59,817 nt of DNA from a virus (lineage: Duplodnaviria > Caudoviricetes). Below are positions 9,619 to 55,348 of this stretch, in pieces. The notes beneath the pieces are model-generated. The model ran no database searches. It was not told the DNA's origin and worked only from the letters and a program-made list of their open reading frames with translations. Within the stretch, counting starts at the first letter, position 1. Each line of letters opens with the position of its first letter. The translations under genes and the position numbers were made by a program. The DNA lies in IMG/VR virus record IMGVR_UViG_3300012663_000543, positions 1 through 59,817 of that record; one strand, given 5' to 3'.

Positions 9619-9870
9619 ATGGCAAAGTCTCCGGCATGGCAGAGGAAAGAGGGCAAAGATCCAAAGGGCGGGTTGAACGCCAAGGGCAGAGCTTCGGCAA
9701 AGGCCCAAGGCATGAACTTGAAGCCTCCGGCCCCGAATCCAAAGACCGAGAAAGATGCCAAACGGCGCAAAAGCTTCTGCGCACGTATGGGTGGGATGCC
9801 CGGGCCGATGAAGGACGAAAAGGGCCGTCCAACCCGGAAGGCCTTGTCTCTTAAAGCATGGAATTGCTGA
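9619..9870 (+). CDS. Small basic conserved phage protein
   Basis: KGGLNAKGRAS...RRKSFCARMGG...LKAWNC. Confidence 0.75.
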   Translation: MAKSPAWQRKEGKDPKGGLNAKGRASAKAQGMNLKPPAPNPKTEKDAKRRKSFCARMGGMPGPMKDEKGRPTRKALSLKAWNC

Positions 9871-20503: not shown

Positions 20504-21058
20504 GTGTCAGTAGGAACCACTCTATCCCACCTCCACAAGTCCACAGCGGAACTGTCTGCGGATATTCTGGAGGACATTGGTGAGATCATCTACAGTGTGC
20601 GTGACGGGGAATTCTCCGTGTGCGTGGTGGCATCAAGACTCAAAACACTGAAAAAGATTATTGGAAAAGTGCCGGATCTCGTTCAATCGGCGGTTACGAA
20701 AAGATATGCCGTTGACCTGCAAAGCATCGGAACTGACATCCTTCGTCTGTACACAGACGGATCCGATCCGGGAGTAGTTATCAATGGGTATTACTTCGAC
20801 CCATCCCTCAAGATGCTTCAGAAAAAAACCTACAAAAAGGTGAAGCCGGGGGAACTGGCGGTGGACAGGTACAACAGTGACGGCGTCCTTGTTTCCCCTG
20901 ACGAGCCAGAAAAGCAGGGAGACTTCTCCTGTTGGCTTGGGGACAAAGACTTTGCTGCCCGTGTTGAGCAGGAAGCAAGTGCCCACGGACATGCAGTGCG
21001 GTACACTTACAAACAGGAGAAGCCGCAGAGCTATCTTCGAGTGATGAGGATGCTATGA
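20504..21058 (+). CDS. Hypothetical protein
   Basis: GTG-start ORF following fibre tip gene. Confidence 0.55.
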   Translation: MSVGTTLSHLHKSTAELSADILEDIGEIIYSVRDGEFSVCVVASRLKTLKKIIGKVPDLVQSAVTKRYAVDLQSIGTDILRLYTDGSDPGVVINGYYFDPSLKMLQKKTYKKVKPGELAVDRYNSDGVLVSPDEPEKQGDFSCWLGDKDFAARVEQEASAHGHAVRYTYKQEKPQSYLRVMRML

Positions 21059-39244: not shown

Positions 39245-39443
39245 AGAGCCATTCCTCTACTTCGCTTTTAAAAAACCGACTTGCGGAATTGCTATCGGTC
39301 TCTTTTCCTAGGGTGACAGGCTGGGGGAAGTGCCCGTCCTTGATCCACTTGTAGATTGTGGACTCAGCCACAGCCAACCATCGGGCAACCTCATGCATCT
39401 TCAGCAGTCGGTCATCCGTGTCAGAAGGGAATATCTCGCGCAT
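39120..39443 (-). CDS. AlpA/excisionase-like winged-HTH protein
   Basis: LLKMHEVARWLAVAESTIYKWIKDGHFPQPV...SEVEEWL. Confidence 0.8.
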   Translation of the reverse strand: MREIFPSDTDDRLLKMHEVARWLAVAESTIYKWIKDGHFPQPVTLGKETDSNSASRFFKSEVEEWLYARPRGKFISVPKTLVRATRMRKDAQADRRGSEGTAEGDES

Positions 39444-40959
39444 TGTTCTTCTCCGATCTCATATCAACTTGCGCTTCCTTAAACGCCGGAACCCACCAGA
39501 CCCTTATGGTTGTGGATGTCCCATCTTCTTTGCGAATGGCCTGATGTCCGTCGCATCTTTCGCCAGCGTTGCTGTCCTTCAAGAAGCCTTGGATCATCAC
39601 ACGTGTGGCAATCGTAAAGCCTCGGAACTTCATGAACTCCATCAACCCAGCAAAGGTGAACTTGGTCAGGCCTCGGTCGGTCCAAGGTTTGCCCATGACC
39701 AGTTCTTCTGGGACCATGGCCTTGATGTTGCTGGTACAGTATTCCCGTATCAGCTCGTCAAACTGTCCACGTATGGTCAGTTCCGGCGGGGCTTCCACTA
39801 GGATAGCCGTCTGCAGCAGCCCGTTCACAATGCGGTTCCAATCAGGGCCCTTTACTGTGGGCGGCATCCGGTTGACCTGCTCGATGCAAGCCTTCTGGAA
39901 GGCTGGTTGGCTAGCCATCTGCTCTGCCGTCAACTCCAAGCGACAGCCCTCATAGTCCAAGAAGAACATCTTTGGCGACGAGTTGAGAACTGTCATGCCC
40001 GTCAGCTTCGGGAACTCCGTGAGCCCGCCGCCGCCAATCCCATACTTGCGGGATCGACAGATGTCCTTGTTGCAGAAGTTGCAGAGAGGCTGGGCGCTGC
40101 ACTGGAACCCGTACTGCTTCTTCTCGTGCTGTTTCTTGAGCGTGACAATTTCTTCGGCAGAGAGGGGTGTCGAGCAGTACTTGACGTTGCTCTCCTCAAG
40201 TAGCTTAGGCCATCCCTCCGGCGATTCCTTGCGGTGTGCGACCACCATGTTGAACAGGGTGATGTTCCTGAAATCGTTAACCACACCCTGCTCGATGATC
40301 TTCTCTAGGCAAGGCGGGTAATCCGCTAGGTCTGTCCTGCCGCCCGCATACTCGGCTTTCTCAAGGGTCGATAGGGGGACGGTCTTGGCATCGACTCGAT
40401 CAAGGAACTCCTCAAGCGACAGGGCTTCTCCGTTATCGTCGATGGCATAACGAACGGTCTGATCCGCGTTGAAGTACGGCATGTTAATGAAGTTACCAAC
40501 ATCCCCTCGATCTGTTAAAATTTTGTCCTGTTTTGGAAATATCTCCCTGCCCGCATAGCCCAACAGGGCTGCGGCTTCGGTCAGATACTCGCGGACAAGG
40601 GACGCCTCGTACCACTGGGTCAAGAACAGGTAGAGGTGAGCGCCGCCGGACTTTGACCGACAGTGCACCAGAGGGAGATCGTACTTCAGTATCTTTGCCG
40701 CCAGTGCTTTGTGGTCCAAGTCGTAATCGTCAACGTCGATGACGCCGAAGCGGCACTCGTTCTTTGAGTTGATTGGGATAGCGCCGATCCCCTGCGCTCC
40801 AGACAAGTGCCCAGAAACGTGGTCCTCGGTCATTACCTCGCGGATAACGAAGCTGTTTGCTTCGGCCTTTCCATTCCGAGCCTTGCGTCCGACCGTTGTG
40901 CGACCATGCGCAAGGTCAGAGCCTTCGAAGGCCCGCATAAATCGTAGTGCTGTTGACAT
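39421..40959 (-). CDS. AEP-type primase(-polymerase) with PriCT-like and Zn-binding regions
   Basis: GVIDVD, RSKSGGAHLY, FPKQ, INMPY; C-x4-LC-x2-C-x4-C. Confidence 0.8.
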   Translation of the reverse strand: MSTALRFMRAFEGSDLAHGRTTVGRKARNGKAEANSFVIREVMTEDHVSGHLSGAQGIGAIPINSKNECRFGVIDVDDYDLDHKALAAKILKYDLPLVHCRSKSGGAHLYLFLTQWYEASLVREYLTEAAALLGYAGREIFPKQDKILTDRGDVGNFINMPYFNADQTVRYAIDDNGEALSLEEFLDRVDAKTVPLSTLEKAEYAGGRTDLADYPPCLEKIIEQGVVNDFRNITLFNMVVAHRKESPEGWPKLLEESNVKYCSTPLSAEEIVTLKKQHEKKQYGFQCSAQPLCNFCNKDICRSRKYGIGGGGLTEFPKLTGMTVLNSSPKMFFLDYEGCRLELTAEQMASQPAFQKACIEQVNRMPPTVKGPDWNRIVNGLLQTAILVEAPPELTIRGQFDELIREYCTSNIKAMVPEELVMGKPWTDRGLTKFTFAGLMEFMKFRGFTIATRVMIQGFLKDSNAGERCDGHQAIRKEDGTSTTIRVWWVPAFKEAQVDMRSEKNNARDIPF

Positions 40960-52824: not shown

Positions 52825-53115
52825 TCAGAATAGTATCTCGTCGTCGATGAAGATGTCCACCTTGATACGTGTCAGAGATCGTATCCAGTGGTCGTAGTCC
52901 GAGTGCTTTTCAGCAATCGTGACAGGGCCGACGTGGTGCTCCCAGCATCGAATGAAGAGCGTCGCGTCGCAGTCCTCTTCAAGGTAGAGCTTCTCGCCCC
53001 GCATGAAGCTGAACTGGCTGAAGTCGGAGGTGTCAAGCAGTGCCTGTCGCGCCTCCTGTATCGAGACCTCCAGCCATGCGTGACCGGGGTCGCTGTGCAT
53101 CGTGAATGTTTTCAT
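52825..53115 (-). CDS. Early conserved hypothetical protein
   Basis: DPGHAWLEV...YLEEDCDA. Confidence 0.7.
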   Translation of the reverse strand: MKTFTMHSDPGHAWLEVSIQEARQALLDTSDFSQFSFMRGEKLYLEEDCDATLFIRCWEHHVGPVTIAEKHSDYDHWIRSLTRIKVDIFIDDEILF

Positions 53116-53168
53116 CGTGTGGTTCCTTTGTTGTGGGTGGGGAGACCTGTCGGCCTCCCCGGTTGCAG

Positions 53169-53573
53169 TTAGAGTTGCGACGTGATGGCGTTGCTTGCAA
53201 GCTTCTTCATCATCGCCGTCAGCGGGTTTATGAAGTCCTCGTCCATGCCGAGGTCCTTGGCCCGATCCATGACGCGACCAAGCATCAGCATGAACTCGTC
53301 ATGGTCAAGCTCCGAGCGGGACTTGAGGGCCTTTATGTACTCGCGGGCCTCGATGACCATGTTGTCTATGTCCCCGACGGTCTGCCCACGGAAGTACTTG
53401 TAGGTGTGGAGGCTGTCCTCGCGAACCTTGTACTGGAGGTCCAAGCTTACTGGGCTCCAATCGTTGGTGGAGATCCGCCACGTGACCTCCGGATCGAGCA
53501 GGTCCCGATCCTTGAGCTCCTGCTTGATCTCGACCATCGTGACGTCCAAGTCCCATTTGCTGTAGAGTGTCAT
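53169..53573 (-). CDS. Early hypothetical protein (first gene of leftward leading operon)
   Basis: SD AAGGA; 134 aa. Confidence 0.65.
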   Translation of the reverse strand: MTLYSKWDLDVTMVEIKQELKDRDLLDPEVTWRISTNDWSPVSLDLQYKVREDSLHTYKYFRGQTVGDIDNMVIEAREYIKALKSRSELDHDEFMLMLGRVMDRAKDLGMDEDFINPLTAMMKKLASNAITSQL

Positions 53574-53606
53574 GTCGTTCTTCCTTCTTACTGTTAGGCT
53601 CTTCAG

Positions 53607-54270
53607 TACTGAACAGCCATTCCCGCCTCGCGAGAACGCCCCCAGCGGGACATATTACTTTGAAAAGTCAAGATTTGGCTTTTTGCATGTCTGTTTTTTC
53701 CGATGATCTTGGTTCGCCCGTGATGCGCTCGCGTATCACGGTTAACAGCGAACCAGCACTCAGTAAAAACTGATATGCGGAAAGTTGAATCGACCCCTTC
53801 AGGGGTTGACTTTTTGATGTCGTATTGCCTCCGCGCTTTACGCGGCGGTAATACGACTAAGTAATATGGTACGATGGCTCGGGGCGGAGCAAGGTGGGAT
53901 GGTTGTTTAGTATAAAAACAGGCTTGCCCGCGCTTGCGCGGTTAACAGCAAGCCTTCCTCTTTGCCCGGGAGGGCAAGTCCCCCTGCTGCGCGGCTTGCC
54001 CGCGTCTGGCAGGGGGATACTTTCACCTTATTTTCACCTTATTTTCACTCTGTTTGCGATAGGGATCGTTACCCGAATGGGCCGAGACCTCTTGTCTCGG
54101 CTCGGCCCTCTTGGGGGCCGAGTAGAGCCCGGGCCCCCTTGGGCATCGCCATGCTACGCTAGGGGTAACTTGGACCAAAGTCCCACCGAGACGCTCAATG
54201 CGTCGAAGGGGGGACCCCCCTTTTTGGGGGCCGAGCGCTGCGGGTGCGGTATATTACTGGTTTACCAGAT
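53607..54270 (+). ncRNA. Candidate large structured ncRNA (or ssDNA structural element)
   Basis: Nested helices with many G-U pairs on the + strand only; CUUG and GNRA tetraloops; repeated UUAACA bulge module. Confidence 0.6.
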
Positions 54271-54368
54271 TTAATCGTTCCCAGTTCCATTGGCCGAGGC
54301 CCACCCACCCATCTCCCCAAAACAAAAACAAGAAATCCACAACCCAAAAAATACAGGTACAATTTCGT

Positions 54369-54397
54369 TTGACTTGTTTCATTTCAACAAGTATCAA
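54369..54397 (+). promoter_or_regulatory. sigma70-like promoter
   Basis: TTGACT-N17-TATCAA upstream of gapR-like gene. Confidence 0.6.
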
Positions 54398-54420
54398 GAG
54401 CAAATCAAACGGAGGACCAC

Positions 54421-54705
54421 ATGGCGTTGAAGTACAAGGAAGACCCGGATTTCGCTGACCACAACAAGCGGGCTAACGATACGGCTGCGAGAGAGTTGAA
54501 AGAGATGCTGGAGCGGATAGAGTCTGCACAGGCCGTAAAGGCTGACGCATCTAAGGATGAAACTGACATATATGTTGTGGCAAAGTCTAAGGGCTATAAC
54601 ATAAGGGCGTTGAAGCGTTTGGTCCGCGAGCGGCAGCGCGATGCTGACGAACTGCGGGAAGAGCGCGACGCTTTGGATCTGTACAAACTGCTTATAGGGA
54701 TGTGA
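54421..54705 (+). CDS. gapR: GapR-like (DUF2312) nucleoid-associated protein
   Basis: ELKEMLERIE...DIYVVAKSKGYNIRALKRLVRER...LDLYKLLIGM; SD GGAGG. Confidence 0.82.
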   Translation: MALKYKEDPDFADHNKRANDTAARELKEMLERIESAQAVKADASKDETDIYVVAKSKGYNIRALKRLVRERQRDADELREERDALDLYKLLIGM

Positions 54706-54708
54706 GCT

Positions 54709-55173
54709 ATGACCAAATTCTGCCCAAAGATAATCACCTACGAGGGTATCCAGTTCAAGGGTATCCATTTTGACGACAACGGCGAGTACGACGTCCAGTT
54801 CGAGCTTGACCCCGGCGAGCGGTTGCCGAGATGGCTTGTCAATGCCTTGATGGATGGCGAGTTGTACGCGGTCCCCGAGTTGTACGGGGCCCCCGAGTTG
54901 TACACGGCCCCCGAGTTGTACGCGGCCCCCGAGTCTACGTGCTTGCTCCTTGGCAAGGATGACGACGTTATGAACATCTATCCGGAGGATTGGCTGATGT
55001 ACAGAGAGGACGTCGGGATCTTTATGGTGTCGAACAACGAGCTTCTGGAAGACTTTGACATCGCTTACCCAGACCAAGAGCCACAGGTCATCCCGCAGGA
55101 CGCCGTCGTTTTGGTAACGGGGGTTTCTGCCAAGGGCGAGACCCGGCCCAACGTCGAGGGTGTTCCCGTCTAA
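54709..55173 (+). CDS. Acidic hypothetical protein with 4x ELYxxP repeat
   Basis: Tandem 18-bp repeats 54859..54930. Confidence 0.55.
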   Translation: MTKFCPKIITYEGIQFKGIHFDDNGEYDVQFELDPGERLPRWLVNALMDGELYAVPELYGAPELYTAPELYAAPESTCLLLGKDDDVMNIYPEDWLMYREDVGIFMVSNNELLEDFDIAYPDQEPQVIPQDAVVLVTGVSAKGETRPNVEGVPV

Positions 55174-55196
55174 GATTTCTGTGGTAGTATGTACAT

Positions 55197-55291
55197 ACAC
55201 GAGGCGTCTCCTCCCCGCTGTCGTGTCTGTAGGCCTCTGCCCCAAGGGCATGAGACCGCAAAGGCCTCTCGCATAAAAGCGGGGGGCCTTT
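55197..55291 (+). ncRNA. Candidate sRNA with anti-SD (UCUCCUCCC) loop
   Basis: Extended -10 TGgTAGTAT; hairpin with CTCCTCCC loop; terminal hairpin. Confidence 0.5.
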
Positions 55292-55348
55292 GTCATTGAG
55301 CGCTCCGTCCTTTTGCGTTATCCTGCCGCAAACGATGGAGCTTGTCTT

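Follow-up and report, generated by a model that had tools for sequence, protein, structure and literature searches.

A clamped bulged hairpin with a fixed AACA core recurs in non-coding regions of uncultured phages as a candidate RNA docking module

Several small bulged hairpins, among them boxB, put and the coat-protein operators, are recognised by a partner; they have been keys to phage gene control and are now laboratory tools. Several other systems share parts of this design. In T-box RNAs, Stem I is interrupted at the specifier loop, which presents an unpaired codon plus a purine on its 3' side, immediately on top of a helix. The NAD+-I (nadA) riboswitch and similar aptamers are built from two tandem bulged stem-loops with conserved nucleotides in the bulge and variable stems. 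The ssi sites, including RSF1010 ssiA/ssiB and the phage G4 origin, are hairpins flanked by conserved bases; recognition takes place on one strand of the DNA, and the sites go with a cognate primase. HK022 put is a 73-nt unit of two stems with a triplex that occurs once per operon and acts via RNA polymerase (PMC9378689), and the boxA positions bound by NusB/NusE are nucleotides 1-8 of the element (PMC3177189). The small bulged hairpin described here is unusual in that a 16-nt core is fixed across phages that have no common genes nearby, that it travels on swappable non-coding cassettes, and that it is embedded in large RNA-like domains absent from RNA databases; this combination points to a host-universal partner.

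The window, which is the whole stretch of DNA analysed, is a full 59,817-bp IMG/VR virus record, linear and rated 100% complete. Virion and lysis genes lie on the + strand, including those for the large terminase (917-2389), portal and major head protein, and a replication block with a family A DNA polymerase, a UvrD-type helicase and an AEP primase (39421-40959) lies on the - strand; no tRNA genes were found in the window. BLAST of the module region against 50,697 phage records revealed no close cultured relative and returned short unrelated matches only, as it did for three further lineages introduced below (C, D and E). Parts of 53000-55000 were present in 16 DNA runs, mostly from freshwater or lakes, and in 4 RNA runs. 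The assembled contigs of these 4 metatranscriptome runs, which are blind to strand and ends, cover 53000-53577 and 54614-55000 only, i.e. the flanking genes. Between these genes lies the largest non-coding gap of the genome (53574..54393, 820 nt), which contains no conserved open reading frames and houses both modules and all other elements mapped here. It is bordered by two - strand genes, encoding proteins of 134 aa (53169-53573) and 300 aa (54394-55296), neither of which had a family match. No family match was obtained for the + strand reading frame 53894-54274, and a coding role for this frame and for 53567-53773 was rejected because alignments of relatives contain frame-breaking indels that are not multiples of three. 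The gap also carries 11-nt tandem repeats.

Two copies of one bulged hairpin were identified on the + strand, as an earlier note on this DNA had described. Module 1 (53709..53756) has a 9-bp outer stem, a 10-bp inner stem with one G.U, a CUCG loop and a 3' bulge UUAACA. Its sequence at 53710-53755 is TGGTTCGC/CCGTGATGCG/ctcg/CGTATCACGG/TTAACA/GCGAACCA, one extra possible pair extends it to 53709-53756, and the single interior G.T pair of the inner stem is G53725.T53734. Module 2 (53920..53955) has an 8-bp outer stem, an inner stem of 5-6 bp, a CUUG loop and the same 3' bulge (AGGCTTGC/CCGCG/cttg/CGCGG/TTAACA/GCAAGCCT). Compensatory changes were observed in module 1 compared with L135/L148/L137 and in module 2 compared with L135/L148/L143. 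The 11-mer CGGTTAACAGC is present as two exact copies 200 nt apart, at 53739 and 53939; its count alone is unimpressive, with 16/100 shuffles reaching 2 matches at no more than one mismatch, and 14 matches in the window versus 14.2 expected at no more than two. TTAACA itself occurs 6 times on the + strand and 5 times on the - strand. When both strands were scanned with a descriptor of the architecture (outer stem of at least 4, inner stem of at least 4, TTAACA bulge), only modules 1 and 2 matched. A stricter version (outer at least 6, inner at least 5) gave a mean of 0.025 matches in 200 dinucleotide-preserving shuffles, 5 of which had one match and none two. A covariance model built from 22 modules also matched the window twice (module 1, E 4.7e-8; module 2, E 1e-7) and nowhere else. 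The significance of the pair derives from its architecture and above all from its recurrence in other genomes, not from the 11-mer count. The two modules are genuine, non-chance copies of one structural motif.

Two details of the earlier description narrowed on comparison. The 200-nt distance holds for the bulges in the window only: close relatives have theirs 211 and 210 nt apart, and in other lineages the distances are 229, 244+104, 209, 224 and 106. The CUYG loop is likewise particular to the window and not conserved, with loops elsewhere including aag, cac, gtaa, aaca and longer ones. An intrinsic terminator was rejected, the + strand having no T-run after either module; on the - strand GTTTTTAT comes next after module 2, but it is not conserved in L135.

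The core GCCCG...CGG-(TT)AACA-GC was found in IMG/VR contigs of about a dozen lineages, where the stems differ in sequence and are still complementary. In two contigs that share a 97% identical flanking protein the spacer is wholly different, yet one module is present, with new stems (AGCCGC ... GCGGCT) around the same GCCCG ... CGGTTAACAGC core. An initial search of IMG/VR for this core gave at least 117 stretches, and 15 of those listed had the full fold, judged by reading. The complete scan with the pattern GCCCG-N11-20-CGGTTAACAGC, which fixes only 2 outer and 3 inner pairs, gave 63 stretches. From these data we assembled 22 distinct good modules from ~12 lineages (labelled A to K, plus L237 and L339). 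In their alignment 98.3% of cells pair, compared with 27-41% in slid controls, and 60 cells are changed on both sides, which none of 500 shuffles equalled; this covariation count is partly circular, as the modules were chosen by a descriptor that requires pairing. A control outside this circularity is that the scan pattern fixes five pairs, yet both stems extend into the full two-stem fold in 26/63 matches. A second control, cleaner than the covariation count and confined to inner stems beginning CCGC, left the bulge triplet free (GCCCGC..GCGGTTNNNAGC): among the 121 matches listed, those with AAC folded in 5/7 cases and those with other triplets in 0/114. Among the matches listed, the two-stem fold therefore appears to be tied to the bulge triplet AAC only. 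Covariance model R1 recovered all training members as well as the untrained L339 (E 8e-7) and the AACA variants (E 4e-4), and on six whole phage records it found nothing besides the modules.

The invariant part comprises C/CC on the 5' strand and GG-(UU)AACA-G on the 3' strand. In two lineages, C and D, there are copies whose bulge is shortened to the 4 nt AACA, next to a full UUAACA copy in each, and in the consensus fold of lineage B the two U pair with two opposite A, leaving AACA facing CCG. Loops, stem lengths and spacing are free to vary: modules are 32-48 nt long with inner stems of 5-12 bp, and occur in 1-3 copies per locus, about 100-245 nt apart, in twos or threes in 5 lineages and singly in eight. 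No 7- or 8-mer near the modules, other than the module itself, was common to the 13 lineages beyond shuffled expectation. The combination of covarying stems with a fixed bulge and flanks extends from the window genome to many phage lineages; loss of the bulge at homologous loci had been named as evidence against the motif, and its conservation there favours it.

Among 119 stretches listed from bacterial genomes there was 1 clear module, in a divergent intergenic region of a 12.8-kb high-coverage contig of Falsirhodobacter flavus, and bulk metagenomes yielded 2-3 modules among 120 stretches listed. Compared with 26/63 viral stretches, these low numbers among the stretches listed indicate that the motif belongs to phages. 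Their hosts look proteobacterial. No Rfam 15 family matched at gathering threshold anywhere in the window; at E up to 10 the region 53400-54500 gave chance microRNA-type matches only (15-21 bits), and at E up to 1 nothing was found at the modules of 15 related loci. Judged by these searches, the motif is previously uncatalogued and in no Rfam 15 family. Among the literature matches listed for the 10-mer, most concern tRNA-Asn probes and none a phage motif; those listed for structured phage RNA associated with terS contained nothing relevant.

The modules are parts of much larger predicted structures. The 820-nt gap folds much more stably than its shuffles on the + strand (z -16.05) and less markedly so on the - strand (z -6.96). 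Consensus folds were calculated for lineage A from an alignment of four homologous sequences, the window being 73-76% identical to the other three; the consensus folds draw on 2-3 effectively independent sequences per lineage. Domain 1 (53651..53869, + strand) is multi-branched and closed by CAUAUUACU/AGUAAUAUG, with module 1 as the tip of a long central arm. In the RNAalifold consensus it has 105 pairs, 12 of them compensatory and 4 broken; 3 compensatory pairs are in the closing helix, within what had looked like repeated ATATTAC motifs, and further closing pairs are possible from 53622 out to 53900. Side branches include the hairpin at 53819..53857 and a terminator-like hairpin at 53790..53815 (+ strand, 8 bp with one G.U, followed by CUUUUUG), which is conserved in L135 and whose U-run pairs in the consensus fold with the upstream A-run GAAAAGUC at 53661-53669. 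Domain 2 (53882..54050, + strand) is closed by pairing of 53882-53898 with 54033-54050 and has module 2 as its first branch, followed by hairpins at 53961-53978 and 53980-54016; its 66 pairs include 9 compensatory ones, and many are broken in the distant L143. The closing strand 54033-54050 consists of the tandem 11-nt 'iterons', which are hence one strand of a covarying helix, and segment 53882-53899 has an alternative pairing with 53622-53643. The same design was found in lineage B, whose sequence is unrelated to that of the window: a ~200-nt domain with long-range closing helices and a module tipping the longest arm (96 pairs, 9 compensatory, 0 broken). Overall, the multi-branch structures of the window and two relative lineages span 170-280 nt, with the module capping a long arm. 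Helix-preserving compensatory changes and a strand-specific wobble pattern, as expected of a structured non-coding RNA, were both found.

The folded strand appears to be the one that carries TTAACA. For lineage A the consensus energy was -156 kcal/mol on the + strand compared with -138 kcal/mol on the - strand, and one-sided changes kept pairing in 8 cases and broke it in 4 on the + strand, whereas on the - strand pairing survived in 2 cases and was lost in 9, A.C mismatches accounting for 7 of these. Lineage B gave 96 pairs on the + strand versus 74 on the - strand. Among 24 candidate modules, two of which were judged false, there were 334 Watson-Crick stem pairs; true modules had 3 interior G.U wobbles on the TTAACA strand and no A.C, the sole interior A.C pair being in a candidate judged false. 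Because wobbles are kept on the + strand, modules included, and would be A.C on the other, these data point to the TTAACA strand as the folded one. G.T is tolerated in single-stranded DNA, so this strand bias alone cannot separate RNA from ssDNA. G.U pairs are usual for RNA and costly in DNA, and a 450-nt folded single strand is hard to fit into the life of a dsDNA phage. We prefer RNA because conserved G.U makes up roughly 10% of the long-range pairs, because the modules of lineages C, D, E and F and of L237, L339 and L326 are oriented like the downstream genes, and because a folded ssDNA of this size is hard to place.

Our main reading, to which we give a probability of roughly 0.55, is that the motif is a self-contained RNA module that docks with an external partner which many hosts have in common; transcription, the role of the bulge as ligand site and the external nature of the partner are what we infer from sequence comparison. 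Two helices on the + strand, their junction clamped by G-C pairs that do not vary (5'-GC|CCG ... CGG|-bulge-|GC-3'), would hold out the unpaired AACA, usually UUAACA, on the 3' side. The stems would serve as scaffold only, free to change, with bulge and clamp as the part that is read, so that the two coaxial helices and the G-C clamp would present AACA to the partner. In the window each copy would cap the long arm of its own domain, the two domains forming a predicted non-coding RNA region of ~450 nt between leftward replication and accessory genes and rightward virion genes. The partner would be a host macromolecule or another RNA copy rather than a contact inside the same RNA. An autonomous docking site is suggested because nothing else is conserved near the modules of 13 lineages and only one bulge sequence is tolerated among the matches listed. 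No protein common to all carriers was found (tblastn, E 1e-4): relatives of the 134-aa protein are present in lineages B and K only, and TerS is common only to C, E, F and some B-type contigs. The lack of both a common protein and another shared k-mer argues for an external partner; the lack of a common protein, with the primase absent from 4/5 other carriers, makes a cognate phage primase or other phage protein unlikely. Covarying stems around a fixed bulge make a structure-dependent single-stranded role well founded. The earlier note's proposal of a protein-binding or tertiary-contact module is still the right class of explanation, although no partner was found. Should the partner be a protein or RNA polymerase, the motif would be a new regulatory handle in uncultured freshwater phages. 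The pair of modules resembles NAD+-I in consisting of bulged stem-loops with a conserved bulge and variable stems; it differs in having no Rfam match, in the distance of about 100-245 nt between copies, each in its own domain, and in the downstream genes, which are terminase or unknown phage genes and not metabolic ones.

The most specific lead to a partner is suggested by the module itself. Other phage contigs carry tRNA-Asn genes whose anticodon arm matches the 11-mer CGGUUAACAGC exactly as its reverse complement, and 11/11 tested pattern matches were tRNA-Asn(GTT) genes on the opposite strand, a match that was noticed after the fact. The minimal bulge equals an Asn codon plus A. As a tRNA-Asn trap or sensor, the module would show AAC + A in its clamped bulge and pair with U33-G34-U35-U36 in the anticodon loop of tRNA-Asn(GUU). 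The dispensable UU would presumably face the modified A37/A38 side of the tRNA, which would fit both the variants that have AACA alone and the other fold seen for lineage B, where UU is paired. We consider this identity unlikely; a contact of 4-7 bp would be weak without further help. AAC+A is placed like a T-box specifier and would likewise meet a tRNA anticodon, but the module has no K-turn, S-turn, distal platform or antiterminator with a bulge that binds the tRNA 3' end, and its upper stem is short and variable in length (5-12 bp) with small variable loops. T-boxes span many codons, whereas the module has only AAC (5/7 versus 0/114 among the matches listed), no module family with other codons being found in the sample among those matches. 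Rfam T-box models did not match the window region or 15 related loci, and no conserved second element was found near the modules of 13 lineages. A T-box riboswitch was rejected, as neither Stem I with an antiterminator nor specifier variation is present. tRNA-Asn(GUU) is reported as a secondary target of the PARIS nuclease AriB (PMC12409363), and a phage RNA that binds tRNA-Asn, being early, accessory and present in several copies, could counteract or circumvent host immunity directed at tRNAs. With tRNA-Asn as partner, the module would be the first known case of a phage RNA that addresses a host tRNA via its anticodon and would tie to current work on tRNA-targeting defence systems.

An RNA-RNA contact, by A-minor docking or by bulge-bulge kissing through the self-complementary GUUAAC, would join two domains or oligomerise the RNA. 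G+UUAAC is a palindrome, modules cap long arms of multi-branch domains like peripheral contact elements, and modules occur in twos or threes in 5 lineages; C and D, the lineages with short AACA bulges, each have a full UUAACA copy as well, the GUU of which could base-pair with AAC. This pairing rule is backed by the two AACA lineages only, and the single module of eight other lineages speaks against a contact of this kind. A kissing helix of 4 A-U pairs would be weak and could be extended only by opening the closing G-C pair, no co-conserved receptor sequence was found in 13 lineages, and both the 3' A and the G-C clamp would be left unexplained. We regard such a contact as improbable.

The main non-coding control region is where the modules are located, and in many cases the small terminase gene lies downstream of them. 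In lineages C, E and F and some B-type contigs they lie in a divergent intergenic region and point at terS, which belongs to Terminase_2 and is 60-75% identical among these lineages; in lineage D they are about 820 nt upstream of the large-terminase operon, and in lineage G they come after an M15 endolysin gene. In the window and in C, E and L237, 136-190 nt separate the leftward gene's start codon from the beginning of the first module. Presence of the module is patchy. A covariance model found it at 5/37 terS-related loci, 6/37 having too little upstream DNA to judge, and it is optional among phages with 79-100% identical TerS. L326 and L325 have both flanks in common and differ in that the module-bearing arm is swapped for another arm, and the window and L004 have near-identical flanks with the centre replaced. 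The module is accessory and resides on swappable non-coding cassettes.

This arrangement bears on whether the module is a cis-acting leader of the rightward late or packaging operon, in which the nascent hairpin would bind RNA polymerase or an antiterminator and cause terminator read-through, as put or nut do. In C, D, E, F and B-type contigs the modules are upstream of and co-oriented with terS or the packaging operon, and terminator-like hairpins follow each module in lineage A and, by eye, in L237. These are 2 of about 12 lineages with same-strand terminators after modules; none were found after the module in C, E, F, J and K, and no general promoter or terminator grammar was found around the modules. 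A sigma-70 scan detected no promoter near the window modules. By eye, an extended -10-like motif, TGGTACGAT, is present at 53867..53875 (+ strand) within 36 nt that the window and L135 share without any change, and a second transcript start near 53882 is possible. An extended -10-like TGGTA..AT precedes module 2 in the window, L135 and L237 but is not general, occurring within 100 nt upstream of 4/23 modules versus about 2 expected. In lineage E a promoter-like TTGACA...TGTCGTAAT, also noted by eye, lies between the modules and terS, so that terS need not share the module transcript; in the window the reverse-strand 300-aa gene separates the modules from the rightward operon, and the optional presence of the module beside near-identical TerS is a further argument against a leader function. 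The sole overlap of boxA with UUAACA would presumably be the unrecognised 3' part of boxA.

RNA-only antitermination exists in phage HK022 (PMC9378689), and put resembles the motif as a protein-independent, phage-encoded structured RNA with bulged stems near an operon start and a host-universal partner. However, put is a 73-nt V-shaped stem pair with a triplex, unlike the module fold; our motif is a single bulged hairpin in 1-3 copies with another conserved core and no conserved terminator logic. A put-type antiterminator was rejected, as the two-stem layout of ~73 nt before terminators of the same operon was not found. Lambda-type nut sites (boxA + boxB) and rrn boxA (PMC3177189) are similar to the extent that phage leader RNA there combines a short hairpin with an adjacent short sequence that is recognised in single-stranded form, but the first 8 boxA nucleotides, which NusB/NusE read, have no counterpart in the module, and the enclosing outer stem of the module has no nut equivalent. 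A nut/boxA element was likewise rejected, the module having no single-stranded stretch 5' of UUAACA, since CGG is paired. Overall, a leader function seems decidedly unlikely to us.

We strongly doubt that the element acts as a + strand DNA hairpin for replication (origin or priming), packaging or recombination. Such a role would agree with the location in the largest non-coding gap beside 11-nt tandem repeats, with the position just upstream of terS in small phages, the usual place of cos or pac, with RNA contigs that cover the flanking genes only, and with G.T pairs, which are compatible with DNA hairpins. The repeats, however, form one side of a helix that covaries, roughly one long-range pair in ten is a conserved G.U, and the carriers do not all have any replication or packaging protein in common. 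Recognition by a primase had been suggested in the earlier note, and the module does resemble ssi sites as a hairpin with conserved flanks on one strand; it differs in that primase is not common to its carriers and that the surrounding long-range, G.U-bearing structure is RNA-like. A relative of the AEP primase was found in 1/5 other module-bearing records, the close relative G001, and it is missing from G002-G005, two of which (G003 and G004) are rated 100% complete. These results speak against a primase recognition site, which is also disfavoured by the optional presence of the module among phages with near-identical flanks. A cos/pac-type recognition site of the downstream Terminase_2 family was rejected as well, since a module found at 5/37 loci of that family is too patchy to be its recognition site.

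A processing or stability signal, cut by a host RNase (a single-strand nick of the RNase III type, or RNase E in the bulge) or protecting an RNA end, is very improbable. Stem, asymmetric unpaired region and stem together resemble the RNase III sites of phage T7, the modules lie between transcription units, and hairpins are directly 5'-adjacent in C, D, E and H. Host RNases of the RNase III or RNase E kind are not known to need an invariant 16-nt core, the short AACA variants have no U-rich part, and the strict link between AAC and the fold calls for a sequence-specific reader. Further candidates that were dropped for want of support were the K-turn, tetraloop receptor, SRP domain IV, CRISPR-repeat mimic, retron msr, integron attC, IS200/IS605 ends, CtrA/IHF/DnaA boxes and the preQ1-I tail.

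The edges of the gap hold two smaller elements. On the right, GGGGGG-A-CCCCCC-UUUUU (54208..54225, + strand) is ambiguous between a terminator and part of a CCCCC/GGGGG hairpin with a U5 loop, and is conserved in lineages A and B. On the left, a small covarying hairpin (53597..53618, + strand; alignment columns 25-46, 2 compensatory) is separated by 24 nt from the leftward gene's start codon. This first leftward gene differs between the window and L135, and their non-coding DNA is 75% identical and conserved up to the ribosome-binding site.

Comparison of the window with L004, a locus from lineage B of the module-bearing phages, revealed that the right part of the non-coding gap (window 54145-54410) is nearly identical between this lineage and lineage A, to which the window belongs. 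To the left of this match, 570-830 nt are unrelated between the two lineages. There is thus a sharp mosaic junction around the non-coding cassette. At L325, L319, L191 and L326, the cassettes begin with a common 5' signature, TCGCACC followed by a hairpin and GGGAATGGTCAAGG, whether or not they contain the bulged-hairpin module. This suggests that such cassettes belong to a broader RNA family whose module-bearing arm can be swapped.

In the window, three 11-nt units in tandem (TAYTTTCACCT-like; 54018-54055) resemble origin iterons. In the consensus fold of domain 2, the predicted folded region around the second module copy, these units form the 3' strand of the closing helix and pair with 53882-53898 through many G.U pairs. 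The segment 53882-53899 has two mutually exclusive pairing partners, one upstream (53622-53643) and one downstream (54033-54050), and lies within a stretch of 36 nt in which the window does not differ from L135, another lineage A locus. An exact 12-nt repeat, GGCTTGCCCGCG, was found at 53921-53932, overlapping module 2, and at 53993-54004, where it occupies the loop of the following hairpin. For the 3' half of module 2, this latter copy would be a potential competing partner, making a switch possible; the repeat is not conserved in L135.

The sole phage-database match of the region was a 35-nt segment (54054-54088) with 97-100% identity to Pf1-like filamentous Pseudomonas phages (13 records), where it falls within PA0719-like or hypothetical genes. 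In two lineages, sequence lying downstream of the modules gave weak matches to the alphaproteobacterial sRNA ar14 (Rfam), at L135 2749-2856 (30 bits) and L180 2458-2556 (27.5 bits), both below the gathering threshold of 58.8.

Contigs from four metatranscriptome libraries matched both flanking genes, 53169-53573 and 54394-55296 (function not assigned), with 95-99% identity; these contigs may stem from DNA carry-over. At the tblastn level, the only protein common to the window phage and G004, a 35-kb module-bearing phage, was an 83-aa DUF6321 protein (window 9619-9870, G004 20645-20869; 63% identical). Finally, an identical 23-nt purine tract, GGGGGGAGAGAGGGAGAGGGGGG, is located about 40-90 nt before the small terminase gene terS in six loci from otherwise diverged phages (L159, L195, L182, L186, L189 and L153), immediately preceded by a promoter-like TTGACA ... 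TGTCGTAAT.
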